DNA of 64,000 nt. Source: a virus. Where the stretch lies: positions 36,652 through 100,651 of the IMG/VR virus record IMGVR_UViG_3300031371_000001; one strand, given 5' to 3'. The translations under genes and the position numbers were made by a program. Shown here one piece after another: positions 25,615 through 37,636 of this stretch. Numbering within the stretch: the stretch's first letter is position 1; every line of letters starts with the position of its first letter. The notes beneath the pieces are model-generated. The model worked only from the letters and a program-made list of their open reading frames with translations, was not told the DNA's origin and made no database searches.

Positions 25615-26103
25615 CTAGCCGGCGGTGATCTTCGCAAGCTGAATCAGATCATCCTTGCGGGCGTTCGACGGATAGTCAACGCCGGCGCCGTCAAGGTAGG
25701 ACTTCAGTTCCGAAACCGTCATTCCGTCGAAGTCTTCTGGTTCGTCGTCGCCGTCGTCTTCGTCGTCAAACGGGTCCGCTTCGTCGCCGTCGTCGTCGGG
25801 ATCTTCGGGTTCACCGTCAGAATCGCCGGAATCGGCCCCTGAAGCTCCGGAGTCGTCGCCCCCGTCCTCCGGGTCGTCTCCGTCTTCGGGGACGATAGGA
25901 GGCGGTTCAGGCGCCTTCCTCGGCTTTTCCGTGACAGGGGAAAGCCTGAACTTCTGGCCGCCTTCCATTTGACGCAATGCGTCGGCTTCGGCGTCCGTCA
26001 GTTCGAGGTTCGCTGGACGATTCTGGTAGAAAGTCCGTCCCGTCGAATCCGTGTAAGAAAACCCTTGCACGAGAACGACGTTGTAAAGCTTGCGTTCGGG
26101 CAT
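25615..26103 (-). CDS. HeH/LEM (Rho-N-like) domain protein
   Basis: C-terminal MTVSELKSYLDGAGVDYPSNARKDDLIQL after an acidic linker; typical position after the capsid gene. Confidence 0.8.
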   Translation of the reverse strand: MPERKLYNVVLVQGFSYTDSTGRTFYQNRPANLELTDAEADALRQMEGGQKFRLSPVTEKPRKAPEPPPIVPEDGDDPEDGGDDSGASGADSGDSDGEPEDPDDDGDEADPFDDEDDGDDEPEDFDGMTVSELKSYLDGAGVDYPSNARKDDLIQLAKITAG

Positions 26104-28804: not shown

Positions 28805-30106
28805 CTACCCTTGCGAAATCACCCTAACCTTACCTTTGATGGATAGCCCTGTCAACTTGCCAGTCTTCACGGCTTCCCAAACTTGATCGTCATTCACACG
28901 GATCGTCATAAGCCAAGTTCCGGCTTTGATGTTCTTTCCGTTTACGATCATGTCTGCAAGCGCAACGTAGCTTTCGACAAGTTCGAGGTCCCGCGAATAG
29001 TCCTTGTGTTGAACCCCAAGCTTGACGGTGCCTTCATAATATCCCTCCATGAAGGCGTGCGCGGCTTCCTCTATCGCTTCTTCCGAAATGATGTCGCCTT
29101 GTGAATCCGTCGTTTCAGGCTTCAGGACGATCCCCGTTATCAATCGCTTTTCAGCCTTTGCGATCGAAAGCGTCAAAGCCTTTTCGGTTTCTTCCGAACC
29201 CGATTCGGCCTCCCCCTTCATTTCTTGATCTTCCGGACGCGAGATAAGCCATTCACGGCGCCCGTCCGGGAGTTCGGCGTATTGGAAGATCCAACGACCT
29301 TTCAGAATCTTCCCGTCGAACATGAATTCCTTGAAGTGTTCGTCTTGCTTTCCAGCCGTCCAATCGAAAGCGTCAACGCGACTGATCCGCGTGTAAGCCT
29401 TCGAGGTGCCTCCCGGAGATCCGGGAGGGAATATCCTTGGACCGCTACTGCCGATCTCCATCCAAGGAAGCGCCCCTCGAATCACTCCGGGAGGCTTGCC
29501 TTCATTCTCGCCTGTTGCGACCTTGAAGTTTCCAAGGATCTTCGCGTCCGACTTCCCTTCCGCGATCTCGCGAAATGCGTTCGGCTGAAATTGGTTCCCC
29601 GGCGTGAAGCCCTCGCCGCCTTCCCAATACTTCGCGCCTTGCGGCTGAAGCCGAAAGTCCGTGTGGATCGAGATCGGATCATAGAAAGCGAGGAGGCGTC
29701 TGTCGCTTTCGTCCATTGTTTCGGGATCGATCTTCTCAATGGCACTTGCCAACGGAGCGGAATTCCCTGTTGCCGCCTTCTCAAACAGTCCCTTCCAATC
29801 CGCTTCGAGCAATTCGCCAAGCCGGGAAAGGTGGACTTCCGACACCTCGACAGGTTGCCAGCCGAAGAACCCCGACAGCTTCGTTTGTTCCTTCGACAAG
29901 CCGCGTTCGTGGACTTGAAGAACACCCTTCCCCTTGTCGCCTTCCTTGAAGTCGAGGATCCCTTCCATCGCTTTGACAACGTGCGATTCGTTCATTTCTG
30001 TTCCGCACGTCTCGCAATAGATCGCCTTGATACGTTCGTCGTGTGGCGTGCATGAAGCGCACTTCGGACAAGTGAAGAACTTTTCGACTGTCGCTTCTTC
30101 GTTCAT
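28805..30106 (-). CDS. XkdF-like prohead protease with N-terminal Zn ribbon and LigD phosphoesterase-like domain
   Basis: C-terminal GIVLKPETTDSQGD, GVQH, LVESY, GTWL, GKLTGLSIKG; N-terminal CPKC/CETC, VLQVH...HTDFRL...FDGKILKGRWIF. Confidence 0.8.
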   Translation of the reverse strand: MNEEATVEKFFTCPKCASCTPHDERIKAIYCETCGTEMNESHVVKAMEGILDFKEGDKGKGVLQVHERGLSKEQTKLSGFFGWQPVEVSEVHLSRLGELLEADWKGLFEKAATGNSAPLASAIEKIDPETMDESDRRLLAFYDPISIHTDFRLQPQGAKYWEGGEGFTPGNQFQPNAFREIAEGKSDAKILGNFKVATGENEGKPPGVIRGALPWMEIGSSGPRIFPPGSPGGTSKAYTRISRVDAFDWTAGKQDEHFKEFMFDGKILKGRWIFQYAELPDGRREWLISRPEDQEMKGEAESGSEETEKALTLSIAKAEKRLITGIVLKPETTDSQGDIISEEAIEEAAHAFMEGYYEGTVKLGVQHKDYSRDLELVESYVALADMIVNGKNIKAGTWLMTIRVNDDQVWEAVKTGKLTGLSIKGKVRVISQG

Positions 30107-30110
30107 CGCC

Positions 30111-30431
30111 TTACCTCGCCGCAAATTCGTCACTTTCGAGAACAGCACGCCCGATCGCTTCTTCGTTAGGTCCGCTTCGACTTTCGGGTTTGCTCCAAGC
30201 CGACACATAACCCATATCACGATCCGTTTGCGCGTTGAAGATTTCCTCCAGAGTCCACCCCGTTTCGTCCGTCTTCGCCGCCGCTTCTTCGATGATCTTC
30301 CCGTAGCGTTGCCAATTCAGATCATCGATCGCGACGAACACAAGCCGACGTTTGCTGAGGACGAGAACCCCGACAGTCTGAAAGACGTTATCGCTTACAC
30401 GCCGCGCGAAGCGGCTAACCCTAGCTTCCAT
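30111..30431 (-). CDS. Hypothetical protein (candidate immunity/partner of the MuF effector)
   Basis: Coupled small ORF between MuF and the protease. Confidence 0.6.
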   Translation of the reverse strand: MEARVSRFARRVSDNVFQTVGVLVLSKRRLVFVAIDDLNWQRYGKIIEEAAAKTDETGWTLEEIFNAQTDRDMGYVSAWSKPESRSGPNEEAIGRAVLESDEFAAR

Positions 30432-30804
30432 TTGCGAGTTCCCCCAAATCGATCATGAGACTTGCAATGGCGTTCGGATGCTTCTTCTTCCAAGCCTCAA
30501 CGAACGACACGAGTTCTTCCAATCGAAGCGGCTGGATTTCTAGCGTGAAGGCGTCAGAAACAATCATCATGGATTCCCAAAAGCTATCGAACCCGATCTT
30601 TTCAATCTTCGCAACGTGCGGGTTGTTCGCTTCCGGTTGATACCATGCAAACCCTTTCTTCCCCATTCCGAAGGCAACAACCGGGAAACGAACGGGGTTC
30701 CCCGTTCTTCCGGTTTCTGGTTCCTTCGAGGTGAATGTCACCTCCAACCCTCCCGTCGTCCCGAACCAATTTCCAAGAACCTTCTTCGCTTCGTCTTGCG
30801 TCAT
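30421..30804 (-). CDS. Hypothetical protein (candidate immunity/partner of the MuF effector)
   Basis: ATGA overlap with the MuF stop. Confidence 0.65.
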   Translation of the reverse strand: MTQDEAKKVLGNWFGTTGGLEVTFTSKEPETGRTGNPVRFPVVAFGMGKKGFAWYQPEANNPHVAKIEKIGFDSFWESMMIVSDAFTLEIQPLRLEELVSFVEAWKKKHPNAIASLMIDLGELANGS

Positions 30805-33800
30805 TCCGAAGAACCTATCCCCGATCCGATCTTGACTATGGATTCCGGTTTGTTCTTGAACTTGAAGAGGCTTTCGTCTTCTAGTTGCTTCAGAATCTTG
30901 ATAGCTTCTTCCTTCTCGTATTCATCGGACACATAGACACGGGACAGCTTGCCAAGATCGATCCCGTTCTCAAAGATCGTTTCGTCGCCGCCCTTAGATT
31001 CAGAAAGAGCCTTCCAAACGTTTTCAAGATCATCGGGCAACGTCTGGTTCCTCCTGATTCCTCCGTATCCTTCCGTCCAATGCTGAGTTCCGTATTTGTC
31101 GCCTTTATAGGTGTATACGTTCGAGTTGAAGGCGTCGTCAGGCTCAAACCAAATATTCCTGAAATTCTGATTCGAGTTTTGATAAGCCGGGGTCCGAACG
31201 CGACTAAAACCCATCCTTGCGCCGCCATATTGCATATCGGTTCCGGGACTCCAACCCCGTGGGATGATCCCGACGCGGAACTTTTCTTCAGTCGATAAGA
31301 ATCCTGATTTGTTCGACGCAACGTTTCGAAGGAATTCGATCCCGGTATCCCCACTATAGAAATGGTGCAAAAGCTTATGATTCTTCTTCAGCTTCTTCAC
31401 TACTGCCGGATCGATGTCGAACCGTGCCCAAACCGTTTTTCCATAACCGCCGTACCATTGCGCGATCGGCTTCGCCTTGATCGGACCCTTCGCGATCGTT
31501 TCCGCCCAATCGCGAAGCTTCTTCAACTTCGCGTTGTAATTTTCAGTAGCCCAATCGATCGAATCATAGATCGTGTCGCGATAGTATCGCTCCGCGATCG
31601 TCTTCAGCATGATATATTCAAGCTCTTTCTTTGATGCCAACGGGATCGACAAGCCGCGCTTGTCGAGTTCGGCCAAAGCGCCGGCCATGTCTTCCGGCGT
31701 GAATTGCTTAATCGATTTCGAGAACTCGATTTGAAAAAGCCTTTCGGCTGAAAAATGTTCGGCGTTCTCGCCGCCGGCGACGTATCGAATTTTAACGCCG
31801 CCCTTCAATTCGATTTCGTACCCGTTCATTACACGAGCAAGATCGCCAGTGTCTTCAATCTCCCCAAGCGGGTTCAAGTTGTATCGCTTCCAGCCGACAG
31901 GTTTAAAGGCGTTGCTTCCTTGCTGTTCGAACTTCGACAAGCCGAACTTCTTTTTCATGTTCTTGATATTGAATCGGTTCGCCCCCGTATCATACCAAGC
32001 TTTGACTTGGATCTTGTAATCCTGAAGCGCGCCATATCCCCATTTCGATTCGATCTGACGAATAAGATTCAAAGCTTGTTGAACCTGATCATATGAAAAG
32101 TTCCGACTTGCTTCCGGCACAACGGCGTCACCGAAACGATTCCGGATCTTCTTCGAGATTTCTTCGAGTTGCGACCGGAGGGAAGTAAGCTCCGGGAGTT
32201 CCGATATCGGTTGCGCGCCGGCAGTCTCGAAAAGTTTTCTTGCGATTGCGTCACCTTCAGCGGTCAAACGCATTTCAACCATGACGCCGCCTTGCTTCGG
32301 ATAAACAAGCACGGTTCCATCCCGAACGTTATCGCCGCCGACAAGCAAGCTTTTTCCCCTCCACTTCGATTCTTCGACTTGGCTTATAAATTTACTGTCG
32401 CAAGGTGTCGCAAGCCCTTTCTTCTTCAAGGCGTTCGTTTGACCCTTGATCCCCTTCGGCTTTTTGCCGATCACCTTGTCGCGTTCCTTTTGTGCCTTCT
32501 TCCAGATCCCGGACATATCGTCTCGAAGCGAGTTCTTCCGCTTCAACGCTTCCTTCAAGAACGCGGCTTCGTCAAAGTCCGGGAAGGCTTGTGCGCGTTT
32601 GGAGGAATAGGTCTTCAGAATGCTTGTAAAAGTCGCGTCGTCAAGATCGTCAACAGCCTTGAAGAATGAACGGAGTTCCTTGTTGCGAAGGTCAAGCAAC
32701 TTCAGATCACCGAATGCGCCCTTCGCGTATCCTTCAAGAACTTCATTGTATATCGGAGGGGGGAATCCGCCTCCCGCGTTCGGGCTGTAAGTCCAAGACA
32801 ATTTGTCCCGTGGAAAGAACTTGTAGAGTTGCCCTTTGTCGATCCCAAGGATCGAATCGTCCGCGAGAGTGATCAGGTTTTGCGAATGCCCGTCATGGTT
32901 CGAGATCAGCCAGTCGAAGGCGTGTTCTTTCTGGATCCCGATCATTTGATTCTTCGTCAGGTCCGCATAGTTCACGCCCTTGAAATCGCCCTTTACTCCG
33001 TTGATCCACTTGTGGACGGATCCAACCCGTCCATTGTATTCGGTAACGTAGACTTCGGCTGTCGGATGTCCCAAAGCTTCCGCCATTCGAGCGGCGGCGA
33101 CGTCACCATAAGCGCGGAATTCCTCCCCCGCATGGTATGGCTTGAACATCCATTCCGTTCCGTCATTTTCCCTGAAGAACAACTTTTGATGAACGCCGCC
33201 GGCTTCCTTGTGGAAGCTTTGCATTTTCGCAAGATCCTTGTCGAAATGGATCGGCGTCAGCTTGCCTCCCTGCGGCAATTCAAATTCCGGAGTCGGCAAC
33301 GGGACTCCGAACTCCGTTTCGGAATTGATATCGAGAGTGCAACGACAACGAAAATGAAACGGGGGAATCCCATATCCGTTTTTTGCAAGCGCCGAAGCCT
33401 CCGTCTTTGACGTCGAGGAACCGGAAGGGGTGACGCCCGTTCGTTTCTCGATCCCCTTCAAAGAATCCCAACGAATGATCCGCTTGACTTCCTCCGGGTT
33501 CTTCGTCGCAAGCGCACGATTCATGAGATCGGCGCCTTCACTTACTTGAAAGACCGTCCCCTCCAGGTTCGAGCAAACCGGGCAAGTCCGTTCGTCCATT
33601 GGGTTCGATATCGTGTAGCTTTGCGCCCCGACACGTTGAAGTCCGTTCAATGTGCCGAACGTTCTTGCAACAGTCATCGTGTTCGCCGCCAGCCCTTCGT
33701 AATATTGGGCGATCGATCCGCTCCAACCGTGCGGCACTATCGACGCCGCCGTGAAAGCGCCGGGAGCTTTGCTAAACAGGTTTTCGAGTTCGGATTGAAC

Positions 33801-34427
33801 TTTCTTCGCGCCTTCTGCCCTATCGAACCCCTCCTTGATCATTGCATCCGTCGCCGTGTTCGCGATCGTATCAGAAAGCGCCTTGTCGTAATGAACACCG
33901 ATCCAAAAGACTTGATGATCTGACAAGGTTGCAATCGCGTCTTCGTCAATGACAGAAAACGTCGGGGTTAGTGTCGCGATAGGATCCGACGCCTTTTCAC
34001 GTTCAGTCCATTCATCGGAAACCGATTCGAACTTGTGCGGCGATGGATAGGTGATATCGCGATTCCTTGGATACGTTCCAACCGCCTTCTTCAATATCGC
34101 CTCGAATCCGGCTTTGTAGGCTTCCTCCGTCGCCTTTGTATAGAAAGGTCCAAGAGTCTTCGGGAGCGTCTTGAAATGCGAATCGAAGCGATCTAGAAGC
34201 CTTGAAAGCGAAGCTTCGTCCTTCGCTTTCCCGGACGCGATCGATTTCGTCAGTTCGGAAAGCGCAACCTTCGCACGCTTGCGGAATTCACCGATCGACA
34301 CTTCGTAAAGGCGGCGCTCAATCTCGGAAAGCCGCTTCGCTTCTTCAATGACGGCCGCCTTTTGAACGATCGCGTCAAGATGGATCAGCGCCTCGAAGGT
34401 CGAAAGCGCGTGTCCGTCGCAACACAA
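30801..34427 (-). CDS. Long MuF (SPP1 gp7-like) head protein with HipA/PI3K-like kinase and putative ART-like C-terminal domain
   Basis: DERTCPVC...PPFHFRCRC MuF motif; GGVHQK, WMFKP, FDWLISNHDGHSQN, GIDKG kinase motifs; C-terminal LLHH...GFLS...FSRV...ETIF. Confidence 0.85.
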   Translation of the reverse strand: MCCDGHALSTFEALIHLDAIVQKAAVIEEAKRLSEIERRLYEVSIGEFRKRAKVALSELTKSIASGKAKDEASLSRLLDRFDSHFKTLPKTLGPFYTKATEEAYKAGFEAILKKAVGTYPRNRDITYPSPHKFESVSDEWTEREKASDPIATLTPTFSVIDEDAIATLSDHQVFWIGVHYDKALSDTIANTATDAMIKEGFDRAEGAKKVQSELENLFSKAPGAFTAASIVPHGWSGSIAQYYEGLAANTMTVARTFGTLNGLQRVGAQSYTISNPMDERTCPVCSNLEGTVFQVSEGADLMNRALATKNPEEVKRIIRWDSLKGIEKRTGVTPSGSSTSKTEASALAKNGYGIPPFHFRCRCTLDINSETEFGVPLPTPEFELPQGGKLTPIHFDKDLAKMQSFHKEAGGVHQKLFFRENDGTEWMFKPYHAGEEFRAYGDVAAARMAEALGHPTAEVYVTEYNGRVGSVHKWINGVKGDFKGVNYADLTKNQMIGIQKEHAFDWLISNHDGHSQNLITLADDSILGIDKGQLYKFFPRDKLSWTYSPNAGGGFPPPIYNEVLEGYAKGAFGDLKLLDLRNKELRSFFKAVDDLDDATFTSILKTYSSKRAQAFPDFDEAAFLKEALKRKNSLRDDMSGIWKKAQKERDKVIGKKPKGIKGQTNALKKKGLATPCDSKFISQVEESKWRGKSLLVGGDNVRDGTVLVYPKQGGVMVEMRLTAEGDAIARKLFETAGAQPISELPELTSLRSQLEEISKKIRNRFGDAVVPEASRNFSYDQVQQALNLIRQIESKWGYGALQDYKIQVKAWYDTGANRFNIKNMKKKFGLSKFEQQGSNAFKPVGWKRYNLNPLGEIEDTGDLARVMNGYEIELKGGVKIRYVAGGENAEHFSAERLFQIEFSKSIKQFTPEDMAGALAELDKRGLSIPLASKKELEYIMLKTIAERYYRDTIYDSIDWATENYNAKLKKLRDWAETIAKGPIKAKPIAQWYGGYGKTVWARFDIDPAVVKKLKKNHKLLHHFYSGDTGIEFLRNVASNKSGFLSTEEKFRVGIIPRGWSPGTDMQYGGARMGFSRVRTPAYQNSNQNFRNIWFEPDDAFNSNVYTYKGDKYGTQHWTEGYGGIRRNQTLPDDLENVWKALSESKGGDETIFENGIDLGKLSRVYVSDEYEKEEAIKILKQLEDESLFKFKNKPESIVKIGSGIGSSE

Positions 34428-34439
34428 CGGCGCCCCCTA

Positions 34440-36152
34440 TCAAGACACGTCTGAAGGATACCCGCTCGAAAGCTCCGTTTCGAGTTTCCGACGTATCCCA
34501 AGGAGGGTTTCGACCGTCGTTTGAACAACGCCGCCCTTCGATTTGACGGCTTCAACGGACTCCGGGGCAACTTGTGTCGGAACAGACATCGCCGCCTTGT
34601 TCTTGACCTTTTCGGCCATCGTGAGAGTGAAGGGGATGTCCAGAGGGAAACCCGGTTCCGGCGGCAGATCGCCAAGCGATTGATTCATAATATCTTCGAT
34701 GATCCTTCGCGCGATCCGCGGCGTCATGGCGCCGGTTTTTTCAGCCATTTGCATAACCCGGATCAAGTCTTCGTCGTTCGTGACGTTCGGACTATTCGAC
34801 TTGAAGACGTGATAAACAACTTCGAGTTGAGGCATGATCACCCGATTGATGAAACGATCGAATTCCTCCCGTTCGGGTCCGAAGACTTGTTCCTCCGCAA
34901 GCTTCCTCGAAACGTGCGCCGTCGCGCGGTTGTACTGTTCCCCTGATCCGATGAACAGCGGCGGAAGCCTCCAAGCCTGTCGGATCTTCCTTTCGTTGTT
35001 CTTCGAATAGTCTTGGAAAAGTTCATCGCTCGTTTGAACATCTTTCAACGGAACGGCGTTGATCTTTACGTTCGTGTTCTCACCTTCGATATCGCCTTCC
35101 GCTTCGACAACGACGAACCGGGAAAAGTCCTTCTTCCCTGAACGCGCCTCCGTCGTGAACTGGTTGAGACGATCGATAGTGCCTTCCGTCAGCATTCCGT
35201 TTGCGACAAGCAACAGCATTGAAGGGATATTGTTCCCCTTCAATGTCGTGTAGTTGACCTCCTCCGCGGCCCGTTCACCGAACACCGTTAGAAGTTGCGA
35301 GACGTAACGGGGCATTCCATAGGGCGATCGCGGCGAGTACAGGCGAAGGTGGATGATCTCGTTTGCGCGCTTGCTTTCGGGGAGTTCTTCCGCCGCCCTT
35401 CCGAACACGGGTTCTCCGCTGTCAAGATCGAAGACGCGCGGATCTCCGAATTCCTTGAACCAAACGCCAGTAACGCCGCCGTCCTTGCTTTGGAACTTCG
35501 GGCGAAAGCGCCTCGTGATCTTTGCCGTTCTCAATTCGTGTGAACCGTCAGGCTTCAACACGAGTCGCTTTTCCTCGACTCGAATCCGTGCCTTCGAGAG
35601 AATCCCAAGCCAAACGTCACGGGAAGCGATATGTTCGAACCCGACGATTTCCCCGCTTTCAGGATCGCGGATCACTTCAATGTAAGCGTTGCCGGTGAAT
35701 TCGAGATCACGACGAAGGCGCCGCCTGAAATCAACGAAGCTTCCTTCAAGATAAGCGTATCTATAGAAATTCACGAGACGCGCGTATTCGTCTTTTACAG
35801 GTTGCGCTTCGTCCTTCGGATTGATGGGGATGATTTGATGCCCGAACCCGTCGATATTCACTTCCATTGCTTGCACGCATTCGGAAAGCGTTCCGGAGTA
35901 TTCGCCAAGCTCCGACAAGAATTCGAAATCGAGCGGACGACGAATCAACCTCCCGTCTCGAAGGTACGTTTCAAGCGCCGAATCTTCGTCTGCGATCTTT
36001 TTACTCGAAGCGCCGCCTTCGCCCGTCACGTCTTCACCTTCAATCGTGAAAACCTTTAGCCGGGGAACTACCTTCGCAAGCTTCGCGCGCCGTTCTTCTT
36101 CGAGACGATCCGCGCGCCCGCTATCGACAACGCCTTTTTCCGTGTCCGTCAT
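34440..36152 (-). CDS. Portal protein (PBSX family)
   Basis: DLEFTGNAYIEVIRD, ANEIIH, YGMPRY, RLPPLFIG...YNRATA motifs. Confidence 0.93.
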   Translation of the reverse strand: MTDTEKGVVDSGRADRLEEERRAKLAKVVPRLKVFTIEGEDVTGEGGASSKKIADEDSALETYLRDGRLIRRPLDFEFLSELGEYSGTLSECVQAMEVNIDGFGHQIIPINPKDEAQPVKDEYARLVNFYRYAYLEGSFVDFRRRLRRDLEFTGNAYIEVIRDPESGEIVGFEHIASRDVWLGILSKARIRVEEKRLVLKPDGSHELRTAKITRRFRPKFQSKDGGVTGVWFKEFGDPRVFDLDSGEPVFGRAAEELPESKRANEIIHLRLYSPRSPYGMPRYVSQLLTVFGERAAEEVNYTTLKGNNIPSMLLLVANGMLTEGTIDRLNQFTTEARSGKKDFSRFVVVEAEGDIEGENTNVKINAVPLKDVQTSDELFQDYSKNNERKIRQAWRLPPLFIGSGEQYNRATAHVSRKLAEEQVFGPEREEFDRFINRVIMPQLEVVYHVFKSNSPNVTNDEDLIRVMQMAEKTGAMTPRIARRIIEDIMNQSLGDLPPEPGFPLDIPFTLTMAEKVKNKAAMSVPTQVAPESVEAVKSKGGVVQTTVETLLGIRRKLETELSSGYPSDVS

Positions 36153-37636
36153 ATCAACCCGATCTCCCGACGCTTCTTCCTCTTGCGAACTGTCGAGGCA
36201 CGATAAGCAAGATCGAAGGCGTCAAACCAATCCTTCGTTGAAGTATTGGGGAACTTGACGAATTTTTCAATCAGGTCTTGAAAGTGATCGAGGAACACGA
36301 CACGCCCCGACTCGAAAAGTGGGGTCAACCTCCAAGCACGCGACACCTTGTCCGTTCCGGTGTGCAAGCCAAAGACGGGGACTGAACGATCGGCATCTTG
36401 GAGGTTTTGCAGTTGCGCCTCCTGATAACTGTTCGTCTCGATCCCGATCCGGCTTGCGTCCCATTCCTTCCAAGCATCTATGATTCGCTTCGTTTGAGCG
36501 GAGAAACGAAGCTTCCCTTCAAAGTAATCGACAACGTAATAAGTCGAGGCTTTCCTATCAAACCCTAGAACGATGATCGAGAAGTTGTCCGATTCTTCCT
36601 TTTGCTTGATCGCGAGATCGACCCCAACGAAGTATTCGAGGTCCCGGGGCAGTTCGTCCCGTCGACAGGTTCGGCAATCGTCATAACTGAAGATTTCGCC
36701 CTTCATCGCTTCAACGTCATTCAACATTTGGGCGGCAAAGATAATGTTTCCCATCTTTGCGCGGCGCTTCAATAGTTCTTCAGTCGAGAACTTTTCCTCC
36801 CAAGCCGAGCGGCCCTTCACGTCCGCCTTCCCTTCTTCATTTATCAACGCCGGCAAGTGATAGACGGCGCCCTTCATTTCGCCGTCGATCAAGTGACCAT
36901 ATAGATCCGCGAAGTGGTATCGAGTCCCGATAACGGCCATTTCTCCCCTATGTTCGAAATCACCGGACGGGGGTTCGAGGCAAGGAAGAAGGACTTTGTA
37001 ATACCAAGTCTCGACGTTCTTTCGCTGTCGCTCCGTCTTGGCGTTCTTTTCGTCAACCAAGTCGTCCCCGATTATCAAATCAAAGTGTCGTGAAACGATC
37101 GTTCCTTCGACTCCAACGGTTTCGATCGTGGATTCCTTCAACGCCTTCGTCCGCTGTCGAACAGTGATCGAAGCCGAACCCCATTCGTCATTTCCAACGA
37201 AGTTCCCGAAGAAGTATCGGAACCGCTCGTTTTGTTCAAGGTGCATCTTGATAGCGTTTAACATCCCCTTTGCGTTTTCTGCCGTCTTGCTCGAAAGGAG
37301 GATCCGGATGTCTTCCGGCCGCTTGATCAAAAGGTGAATCGTCTTGACGATCGTTGCAATGATCGTCTTGCCGAATCCGCGCGGCGCAAGGATCAGGTAT
37401 TCGCCTCCAACGTGCTTGAATTGAAATTGCGCGATCTGCAAATGATGCGGCGCAACGTCGTATCCAAGAATCCGCGCCAAGATGTCAACACGGTTCTTCT
37501 CAATCACGAGCTTTCGGATCCACGCGCGGCGCATCCCACGCGCGACGTCGAGACGTTCGACAAGTTCATCCCTGTTCAACTTGTCGAAGTTGCGCGGTAT
37601 CAGTTCAGGAAGGACTAGTTCCGGCGCCGAAGACAC
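36149..37636 (-). CDS. terL: Terminase large subunit
   Basis: APRGFGKT Walker A, LIIGDDL Walker B, GTRYH, GVDLA and DWFDA nuclease motifs. Confidence 0.95.
   Translation of the reverse strand: MSSAPELVLPELIPRNFDKLNRDELVERLDVARGMRRAWIRKLVIEKNRVDILARILGYDVAPHHLQIAQFQFKHVGGEYLILAPRGFGKTIIATIVKTIHLLIKRPEDIRILLSSKTAENAKGMLNAIKMHLEQNERFRYFFGNFVGNDEWGSASITVRQRTKALKESTIETVGVEGTIVSRHFDLIIGDDLVDEKNAKTERQRKNVETWYYKVLLPCLEPPSGDFEHRGEMAVIGTRYHFADLYGHLIDGEMKGAVYHLPALINEEGKADVKGRSAWEEKFSTEELLKRRAKMGNIIFAAQMLNDVEAMKGEIFSYDDCRTCRRDELPRDLEYFVGVDLAIKQKEESDNFSIIVLGFDRKASTYYVVDYFEGKLRFSAQTKRIIDAWKEWDASRIGIETNSYQEAQLQNLQDADRSVPVFGLHTGTDKVSRAWRLTPLFESGRVVFLDHFQDLIEKFVKFPNTSTKDWFDAFDLAYRASTVRKRKKRREIGLI

Follow-up and report, generated by a model that had tools for sequence, protein, structure and literature searches.

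A phage MuF head protein carrying a predicted atypical kinase and a DarT-like ADP-ribosyltransferase, followed by two small candidate partner genes

We analysed a window of 64,000 nucleotides (nt) of viral DNA, positions 36,652 to 100,651 of the IMG/VR record IMGVR_UViG_3300031371_000001, a myovirus genome of 100,651 bp with an estimated completeness of ~98%. The minus strand of the window carries an open reading frame (ORF) of 1208 amino acids (aa), P0001, in which a MuF-type head-morphogenesis domain is followed by a kinase-like domain, a conserved middle domain (MID) and a C-terminal domain with the fold of the DarT ADP-ribosyltransferases (ARTs). The ORF is followed directly by two small ORFs, P0002 and P0003. 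The domain identities, the conservation of catalytic residues, the fixed order of the domains, the position in the head module and the conserved synteny with the small genes are directly supported by the analyses described below. We assign a probability of roughly 60% to the reading that P0001 is a virion-delivered bifunctional effector, a kinase plus a DarT-like ART attached to a MuF head protein, with two small partner proteins. The main features, in window coordinates, are:

30801..34427, minus strand: whole P0001 ORF (MuF, kinase, MID, ART), open over 1208 aa, with full-length homologues at 50%, 45% and 28% identity
33333..34133, minus strand: MuF (SPP1 gp7 / Mu F type) head-morphogenesis domain, ~aa 99-365, from PHROG and Pfam matches
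32463..33230, minus strand: atypical protein-kinase-like domain (PI3/4K, CtkA, HipA class), aa 400-655, from fold match and invariant residues
31476..32462, minus strand: conserved middle domain MID, aa 656-984, from a domain scan with hidden Markov models (HMMs), nearly always directly before the ART
30804..31475, minus strand: DarT-like ADP-ribosyltransferase-fold domain, aa 985-1208 (H1021...E1149), from fold and residue placement
30421..30804, minus strand: P0002, small coupled ORF A, 127 aa, candidate partner or inhibitor, with an ATGA start/stop overlap with P0001
30111..30431, minus strand: P0003, small ORF B, 106 aa, candidate partner or inhibitor, overlapping P0002 by 11 nt and preceded by a GGGGGA Shine-Dalgarno-like run

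The C-terminal domain was modelled separately with AlphaFold2 (aa 985-1208; predicted local distance difference test score, pLDDT, 80; predicted template modelling score, pTM, 0.80). An exhaustive VIA search with this model placed four DarT structures on top, 7omu (Z 9.5), 8baq (Z 9.2), 7yk3 (Z 9.1) and 7omv (Z 9.0), with 152-167 aligned residues at 3.5-4.1 Å. They were followed by SopF (Z 5.7), Tpt1 (Z 5.0) and then CopC, OspC3, CteC, scabin, pierisin and pertussis toxin; every row with Z >= 2 (22/22) was an ART-fold protein. The ART call, which the initial annotation of this DNA had rated weaker than the kinase call, is strengthened by this result. Foldseek likewise returned DarT1 (8baq) as the best match, with an E value of 2.8e-3 and a probability of 0.99, and DarT was recovered again (Z 9.1, 9.0 and 8.1) from an independent model of 809 residues that also includes the kinase and MID. 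The nearest viral predicted structures belong to uncharacterised phage proteins, baculovirus ORF30/32, and iridovirus and giant-virus proteins. A search of the ESM Atlas with the ART domain gave weak leads to DUF3626, DUF3841 and OspC (scores 0.87-0.89). At the level of sequence, searches with the entire protein, with the profile of the family and with that of the ART alone found no match among the sequences of solved structures.

The placement of catalytic residues in the domain is consistent with its fold. The ART motifs comprise KLLHH (aa 1018-1022), GFLST (aa 1042-1046), GGARMGFSRV (aa 1068-1077) and DETIFENGIDL (aa 1148-1158), and an alignment of 48 homologous sequences leaves H1021, S1060, D1064, G1068, G1069, R1076, Y1107, D1110, G1113 and E1149 invariant. 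H1021 lies at the end of strand 1 and E1149 at the start of a late strand. When a more divergent alignment of 26 ART-only sequences was considered, E1149 remained invariant and H1021 nearly so, with a single replacement by Gln. Comparison of the ART profile with two genuine DarT proteins by hhalign produced collinear alignments (E 0.005 and 0.032) in which E1149 falls on the A-E catalytic Glu of DarT and the GxLSxxEKxRxGI segments are also lined up; these results come from the local and relaxed modes, which are informative, the global-mode alignment being meaningless. The nearest solved structures, those of DarT (PF14487), agree with P0001 in the His of strand 1, the GxLSxxEKxRxGI segment, the aromatic character of strand 2 and the catalytic Glu that opens strand 5. 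P0001 differs from DarT in having no Pfam DarT match and a marginal likeness in sequence, and in being fused to a kinase and a head protein instead of standing alone. DarT systems also have a DarG macrodomain or NADAR partner, neither of which was matched in this phage genome. Judged by fold and catalytic-residue placement, the C-terminus of P0001 is predicted to be a DarT-like ART that lies outside the DarT family.

The kinase-like domain was recognised in an AlphaFold2 model of aa 400-1208 (809 aa), built on 48 homologues with a mean pLDDT of 85. In VIA-align the kinase part of the model matched PI4KIIalpha (4pla; Z 15.2, 225 residues, 3.5 Å), CtkA (Z 13.3), Fam20 (Z 12.3), HipA (Z 10.3) and HipT (Z 9.9), and the best Foldseek matches of the same model were Helicobacter pylori CtkA (E 2.8e-5), PI4KIIalpha and PI3Ks (~3e-5). 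The domain contains GGVHQK (aa 410-415), FKP (aa 428-430), a catalytic loop at aa 504-517 that includes D512, and IDKG (aa 529-532). Among the 48 aligned sequences, which reach down to ~25% identity, G411, K415, K429, N510, H511, D512, H514 and D530 are invariant, and the position of N517 is occupied by Gln or Asn across the family, giving a D-x-H-x-x-N/Q loop. The kinase proposed in the initial annotation is therefore borne out by both fold and catalytic residues, and the model places it in the PI3/4K / HipA / CtkA fold class, outside the Pfam HipA_C family. HipA and H. pylori CtkA have the fold class, the D-x-H catalytic loop and the D-x-G motif in common with it; the P0001 kinase, in contrast, falls under the Pfam HipA_C threshold, is structurally nearer to PI4KIIalpha and is without an evident HipB-like partner. 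The N-lobe of the kinase (aa 398-473, window ~33009-33236) also matches the PADLOC candidate defence family PDC-M03A (E 2e-7), and related kinases therefore occur in candidate anti-phage systems as well.

Between the two enzyme folds lies MID, a region of ~330 residues modelled with high pLDDT as a mixed alpha/beta domain. It gave no significant Pfam match, no match to PDB sequences and no usable ESM Atlas match; when the whole module was searched with VIA, kinases and DarT took up all of the first 50 rows. The domain-HMM scan of 144 listed representatives of the ART-profile matches places MID directly upstream of the ART in nearly all members. Where the initial annotation had described two tandem effector domains, the kinase and the ART both stand, and MID, which accompanies the ART in nearly every scanned member, had been overlooked.

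The kinase, MID and ART are inherited together. In BLAST comparisons with the first 56 homologues, aa 400-1181 align as a single block. We found the module in 229 viral contigs in a first scan and in 263 in a second scan with ART patterns, as well as at 145 loci in bacterial genomes from many phyla. The ART-only profile recovered 2129 clusters (at 50% identity) among 1.84 billion proteins, 445 of them at E <= 1e-30; in nearly all cases the ART forms the very C-terminal end of a protein of 1000-3181 aa. Sufficient upstream sequence was available for 109 of the 144 listed representatives, and the kinase-MID-ART order was present in 106 of these, counting a divergent kinase, KIN2. An apparent kinase-less subgroup was rejected when it was found to carry KIN2, which is homologous to the kinase of P0001 (hhalign E 9e-10). 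The three domains are likewise constant in all of the 80 + 80 viral loci examined. Variation is seen elsewhere, in the length of the N-terminus, in SAP/Rho_N segments and in inserted NUDIX or Zeta-toxin domains. The C-terminal ~800 aa, as judged from these sequence comparisons, are a fixed kinase/MID/ART block in about 2000 protein clusters and not a swappable cassette. Besides phages, the module is found in prophages of Desulfobacterota, Armatimonadota, Acidobacteriota, Nitrospirota, Gammaproteobacteria and others, and cultured hosts with prophage copies in their chromosomes include Syntrophus buswellii DM-2, Desulfosarcina alkanivorans PL12, Desulfatitalea alkaliphila M08but and Ectothiorhodospira shaposhnikovii DSM 243.

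Several individual proteins illustrate the variation around the block. P0071 has MuF and NUDIX domains followed by MID and ART, and the kinase tally implies a divergent-type kinase ahead of MID. In P0105, MuF and Zeta_toxin domains are combined with an ART at the C-terminus; MID was not seen there in the first domain scan, and here too a divergent kinase is implied by the tally. P0058 carries NUDIX and the kinase, with a C-terminus that has no assignment. The module can also occur more than once per genome: two kinase-MID-ART copies lie ~88 kb apart in the 133 kb record IMGVR_UViG_3300001567_000262 (loci L135 and L141), and in several bacterial metagenome-assembled genomes it is present two or three times, as in CAXXWT01 (loci L157-L159).

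The same kinase family is found in two mycobacteriophage proteins annotated as "minor capsid and ADP-ribosyltransferase fusion protein", McProf gp54 (hhalign E 6e-38) and Onyinye gp16 (E 8e-29). The N-terminus of McProf gp54 is a MuF-like VG15 domain, and the C-termini of both proteins are matched by Pfam ADPrib_exo_Tox, an R-S-E ART unrelated to that of P0001. Like P0001, these proteins combine the kinase with a C-terminal ART and have a conserved small ORF downstream, and the McProf gene lies in the head module; the region separating their kinase from their ART and the downstream small ORF, on the other hand, are not homologous to those of P0001. Because one kinase family sits with two different ART clades, the comparison of these sequences suggests a functional link between the kinase and ART activities. 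The small ORFs after the two mycobacteriophage genes, McProf gp55 (L001:7132-7500) and Onyinye gp17 (L002:7460-7858), are homologous to each other (hhalign E 1.2e-10) and showed no relation to the small-ORF families of the P0001 group in profile comparison; they may constitute a partner or immunity family of their own.

The block is attached to a head protein. P0001 starts with TTG, 12 nt past the stop codon of the portal gene, with a GGGGG Shine-Dalgarno-like run upstream. Its N-terminal part contains the MuF motifs DERTCPVC (aa 278-285) and PPFHFRCRC (aa 355-363); these and all other motifs quoted in the initial annotation are present in P0001 at the residues it had named. Residues 99-365 are matched by two PHROG families of minor head and head-morphogenesis proteins, at E 7.2e-10 by PHROG 9907 ("minor head protein and DNA pilot") and at E 8.1e-10 by PHROG 595. 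Homologues that align to the N-terminus of P0001 exceed the cut-off of Pfam PF04233 (Phage_Mu_F), P0014 with 52 bits and P0110 with 83 bits, and so does P0071. Since the PHROG matches agree, the homologues are above the Pfam threshold and the gene comes directly after the portal gene, we regard the MuF assignment already made in the initial annotation as sound on these profile comparisons.

The two small coupled ORFs reported downstream of P0001 are both present, and their position is conserved. In nearly every related locus, a coupled small ORF comes directly after the big gene and is followed by a second small ORF. BLAST groups these proteins into families A (155-172 aa) and B (110-135 aa), with shorter families A' and B' in the closer relatives. 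The links between the families are weak in hhalign (A' to A, E 1e-3; B' to B, E 1.4e-3). P0003 belongs to B', clustering with the second downstream ORFs of loci L005-L007 and with the C-terminal half of a fusion protein in locus L004. P0002 has one database homologue (48% identity) and P0003 has none. HMMs detect both A and B downstream in 95 of 121 viral loci, while in bacterial loci B is found in 71/71 and A in 56/71. In the 15 bacterial loci lacking A, a gap of 74 to ~500 nt precedes B, and 13 of these gaps are of at least 314 nt, leaving room for a divergent A-like ORF. The fusion (L004:3659-4420, plus strand) encodes an A'-B' protein of 253 aa, whose N-terminal half matches A' (E 3.5e-4) and C-terminal half B' (E 1.5e-6) in hhalign.

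Conserved synteny identifies A and B as putative dedicated partners of the module. By analogy with Bxa and Apk2, MuF toxins that are each neutralised by two adjacent proteins (PMC11699363), A and B could be binding inhibitors, and they could also be chaperones or assembly cofactors. The initial annotation had proposed one partner per enzymatic domain. The joining of A' and B' in L004, together with the Bxa and Apk2 precedents of two immunity proteins for one toxin domain, instead suggests that A and B act together, with no simple one-per-domain split. Two attempts to assign the small ORFs to single domains failed: no natural deletion of the kinase came to light, the apparent kinase-less relatives being carriers of KIN2, and the small ORFs of the mycobacteriophage kinase-ART loci are unrelated to A or B.

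The genes around P0001 form a head module. The order on the minus strand is large terminase, portal, the 1208-aa ORF, the two small ORFs, an XkdF-type prohead protease, a capsid-like protein, further head genes and the tail sheath. The identified neighbours are:

36149..37636, minus strand: large terminase subunit (PHROG 38, E 2.6e-83)
34440..36152, minus strand: portal protein (PHROG 12, E 2e-30; Pfam Phage_portal, E 1e-11)
28805..30220, minus strand: XkdF-type prohead serine protease domain preceded by a long N-terminal extension (Peptidase_S78_2, E 1.3e-28, aa 354-465; PHROG 3017, E 1.9e-34)

The extension of the protease protein, ~340 aa ahead of the protease domain, has no Pfam assignment. 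The listed GTG start of this gene overlaps P0003 by 110 nt, and its true start is for this reason probably later. Among the head genes there is also a 162-aa ORF (25615-26103, minus strand) in which a C-terminal segment is matched by PHROGs with the annotation Arc-like repressor or endonuclease VII (E 2e-8 to 1e-7). No tyrosine integrase was detected in the ~98% complete genome, and Macro, NADAR and ADP-ribosylglycohydrolase (ARH) domains were not matched anywhere in it. In many related viral loci the small ORFs are followed by a gene for a DNA methyltransferase of ~800 aa, as in L029:10411-12810 (plus strand), where a 799-aa DNA methyltransferase (PHROG 27806, E 0) lies after A and B inside the head module. 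By analogy with P1 DarB, this methyltransferase could be another packaged cargo.

The arrangement fits a virion-delivered effector, which we envisage as follows. The MuF part would carry a few copies of P0001 into the prohead at the portal, and during infection the protein would leave the capsid together with the DNA. In the new cell it would spend ATP and NAD+ on modifying host targets ahead of any phage gene expression, in the manner of T4 Alt, for host takeover or counter-defence. The two small coupled proteins would most likely bind the enzyme in the producing cell, silencing or chaperoning it.

A number of observations weigh against this reading. Packaging, injection, both catalytic activities, the targets and what the small proteins do are all matters that we infer from sequence and models. 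The scores of P0001 itself in Pfam are low: aa 266-365 reach 23.4 bits against PF04233 (E 1.1e-4; cut-off 29.6), and HipA_C reaches 18.6 bits (E 1.6e-3; cut-off 30.5) and covers aa 409-464 alone. No Pfam ART or DarT (PF14487) match was found in P0001, nor a DarT match in the whole phage genome, and the same Pfam DarT model does pick up true DarT genes when run on two bacterial genomes. As far as sequence goes, the support for DarT is marginal, the better of the two hhalign alignments having a probability of 7%. The strand-2 Tyr of the family consensus (H-Y-E) is replaced by Met1072 in P0001; active DarT1 also does without a strand-2 Tyr (PMC11543638). No equivalent of the proton-abstracting Arg (R51 in DarT2, R52 in DarT1) was identified, the invariant R1051 aligning in hhalign, at the level of sequence, to the earlier Arg of EKxRRG and not clearly to R51/52, and the substrate of the P0001 ART may for this reason differ from that of DarT. 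As for the partners, the small ORFs and families A and B have no Pfam, PHROG or PDB-sequence match, no recognisable fold and no hydrolase signature, P0002 is tied to A' weakly (hhalign E 0.036, 90 collinear columns), and a phage without an integrase has a less obvious need for immunity genes.

The initial annotation had framed P0001 as a member of the MuF polymorphic toxins. Taken in the classical form, this would make the kinase and the ART two exchangeable toxin domains used in competition between lysogens, each with an immunity protein of its own. The MuF N-terminus, the C-terminal enzymes and the small downstream ORFs are arranged as in the toxins described by Jamet 2017 (PMC5576092) and in Bxa and Apk2 (PMC11699363), prophage copies exist in chromosomes such as those of S. 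buswellii and D. alkanivorans, and the small ORFs show the rapid evolution that immunity proteins also show. Exchange of domains, however, is not what the family displays: kinase, MID and ART form one block in 106/109 representatives, and it is the N-terminus and the optional NUDIX or Zeta-toxin inserts that vary instead. MuF toxins have been reported almost exclusively from temperate phages (Jamet 2017, PMC5576092), whereas this genome has no detectable integrase. No ADP-ribose hydrolase was matched in it either, and the A-B fusion in L004 suggests joint action. We therefore find the framing unlikely for P0001. Somewhat less likely again is that the module acts in the producing cell or the capsid on the phage's own DNA ends or head proteins, whether for self-protection against nucleases and restriction or for the control of assembly, with A and B as assembly cofactors. 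DarT-type ARTs do act on DNA (PMC11543638), MuF/gp7 proteins sit at the portal beside the DNA end (PMC5576092, SPP1 gp7), A and B lie within the head-assembly operon and are conserved like structural genes, and some neighbouring genes, such as the methyltransferase of L029, resemble cargo. Yet the capsid interior has no supply of NAD+ or ATP, the MuF-fused enzymes that have been studied (EFV toxin, Bxa, Apk2) act on cellular targets, and nothing in our data ties the module to DNA ends.

Loss of activity in one or both enzyme folds, which would leave structural or binding modules of a large head protein, seems very improbable. Met1072 in place of the strand-2 Tyr and the scores of P0001 with the Pfam HipA_C and DarT models would fit such a loss, but the phosphotransfer residues and the ART Glu are invariant, and the ART His nearly so, across sequences that are 25-30% identical, and DarT1 is active without the Tyr (PMC11543638). 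A further idea, which we put forward as speculative and hold to be rather doubtful, is that the kinase and the ART, linked through MID, each carry out one step of a single reaction on a shared molecule. Phosphorylation might prime a nucleic-acid or protein site for ADP-ribosylation, or the attached ADP-ribose might itself be phosphorylated, blocking its removal by host macrodomain or NADAR hydrolases. A coupled reaction of this kind would explain the co-inheritance of the domains in about 2000 clusters, the pairing of the kinase with an unrelated ART in mycobacteriophages and the presence of NUDIX domains in some relatives.

The preferred reading, a virion-delivered and possibly coupled kinase and ART, makes P0001 a further form of the known theme of MuF effectors and polyvalent proteins. 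Effectors fused to MuF, and the proposal that they are injected, are established ideas (PMC5576092, PMC5512222, PMC9503650), and T4 Alt and MuF-ART fusions provide precedents (PMC5512222, PMC9503650). The MuF toxins (EFV toxin, Bxa, Apk2; PMC5576092, PMC11699363) resemble P0001 in having an N-terminal MuF domain, a C-terminal enzyme that may be an ART, a gene position after the portal and small ORFs downstream. They carry a single exchangeable toxin domain (R-S-E ARTs, nucleases or alarmone synthetases), and one of their two immunity proteins is a hydrolase; P0001, in contrast, has a fixed block of kinase, MID and DarT-like ART that is conserved across phyla, with no detectable hydrolase or integrase. 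Polyvalent proteins (Iyer et al. 2017, PMC5512222) similarly unite several effector domains in one virion-associated polypeptide, ARTs and kinases being among the commonest, and both MuF fusions and Zeta-toxin kinase fusions have been described among them. P0001, which is encoded among virion genes and has at least two effector-type domains in its polypeptide, belongs with the polyvalent proteins in this respect. Their ARTs are of the H-Y-D type (Tox-ART-HYD2 clade), the kinases among them are Zeta toxins or Ser/Thr/Tyr kinases truncated at the C-terminus, and their architectures are highly variable, whereas the P0001 block has a fixed order and a kinase of the PI4K/HipA class. T4 Alt, an ART that is packaged in the head, injected and active on host proteins as infection begins, serves as the functional model for P0001; it differs in being an R-S-E ART with neither a MuF fusion nor a kinase. 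Our search of the literature turned up no report in which a PI4K/HipA-class kinase is obligatorily linked to a DarT-like ART.

Few of the proteins that are injected with phage DNA and act ahead of phage gene expression have been characterised, among them T4 Alt, P1 Dar and N4 vRNAP. The family delineated here is uncharacterised and very large (2129 clusters at 50% identity); its members permanently link a PI4K/HipA-class kinase and a DarT-like ART to each other, with a head protein as anchor and with two small, putatively dedicated partner genes. The cultured hosts that carry prophage copies make the module testable. If it is active, it would be the first DarT-like enzyme turned by a phage on its host, instead of by a host on the phage, and a natural case of obligatory coupling between a kinase and an ART.

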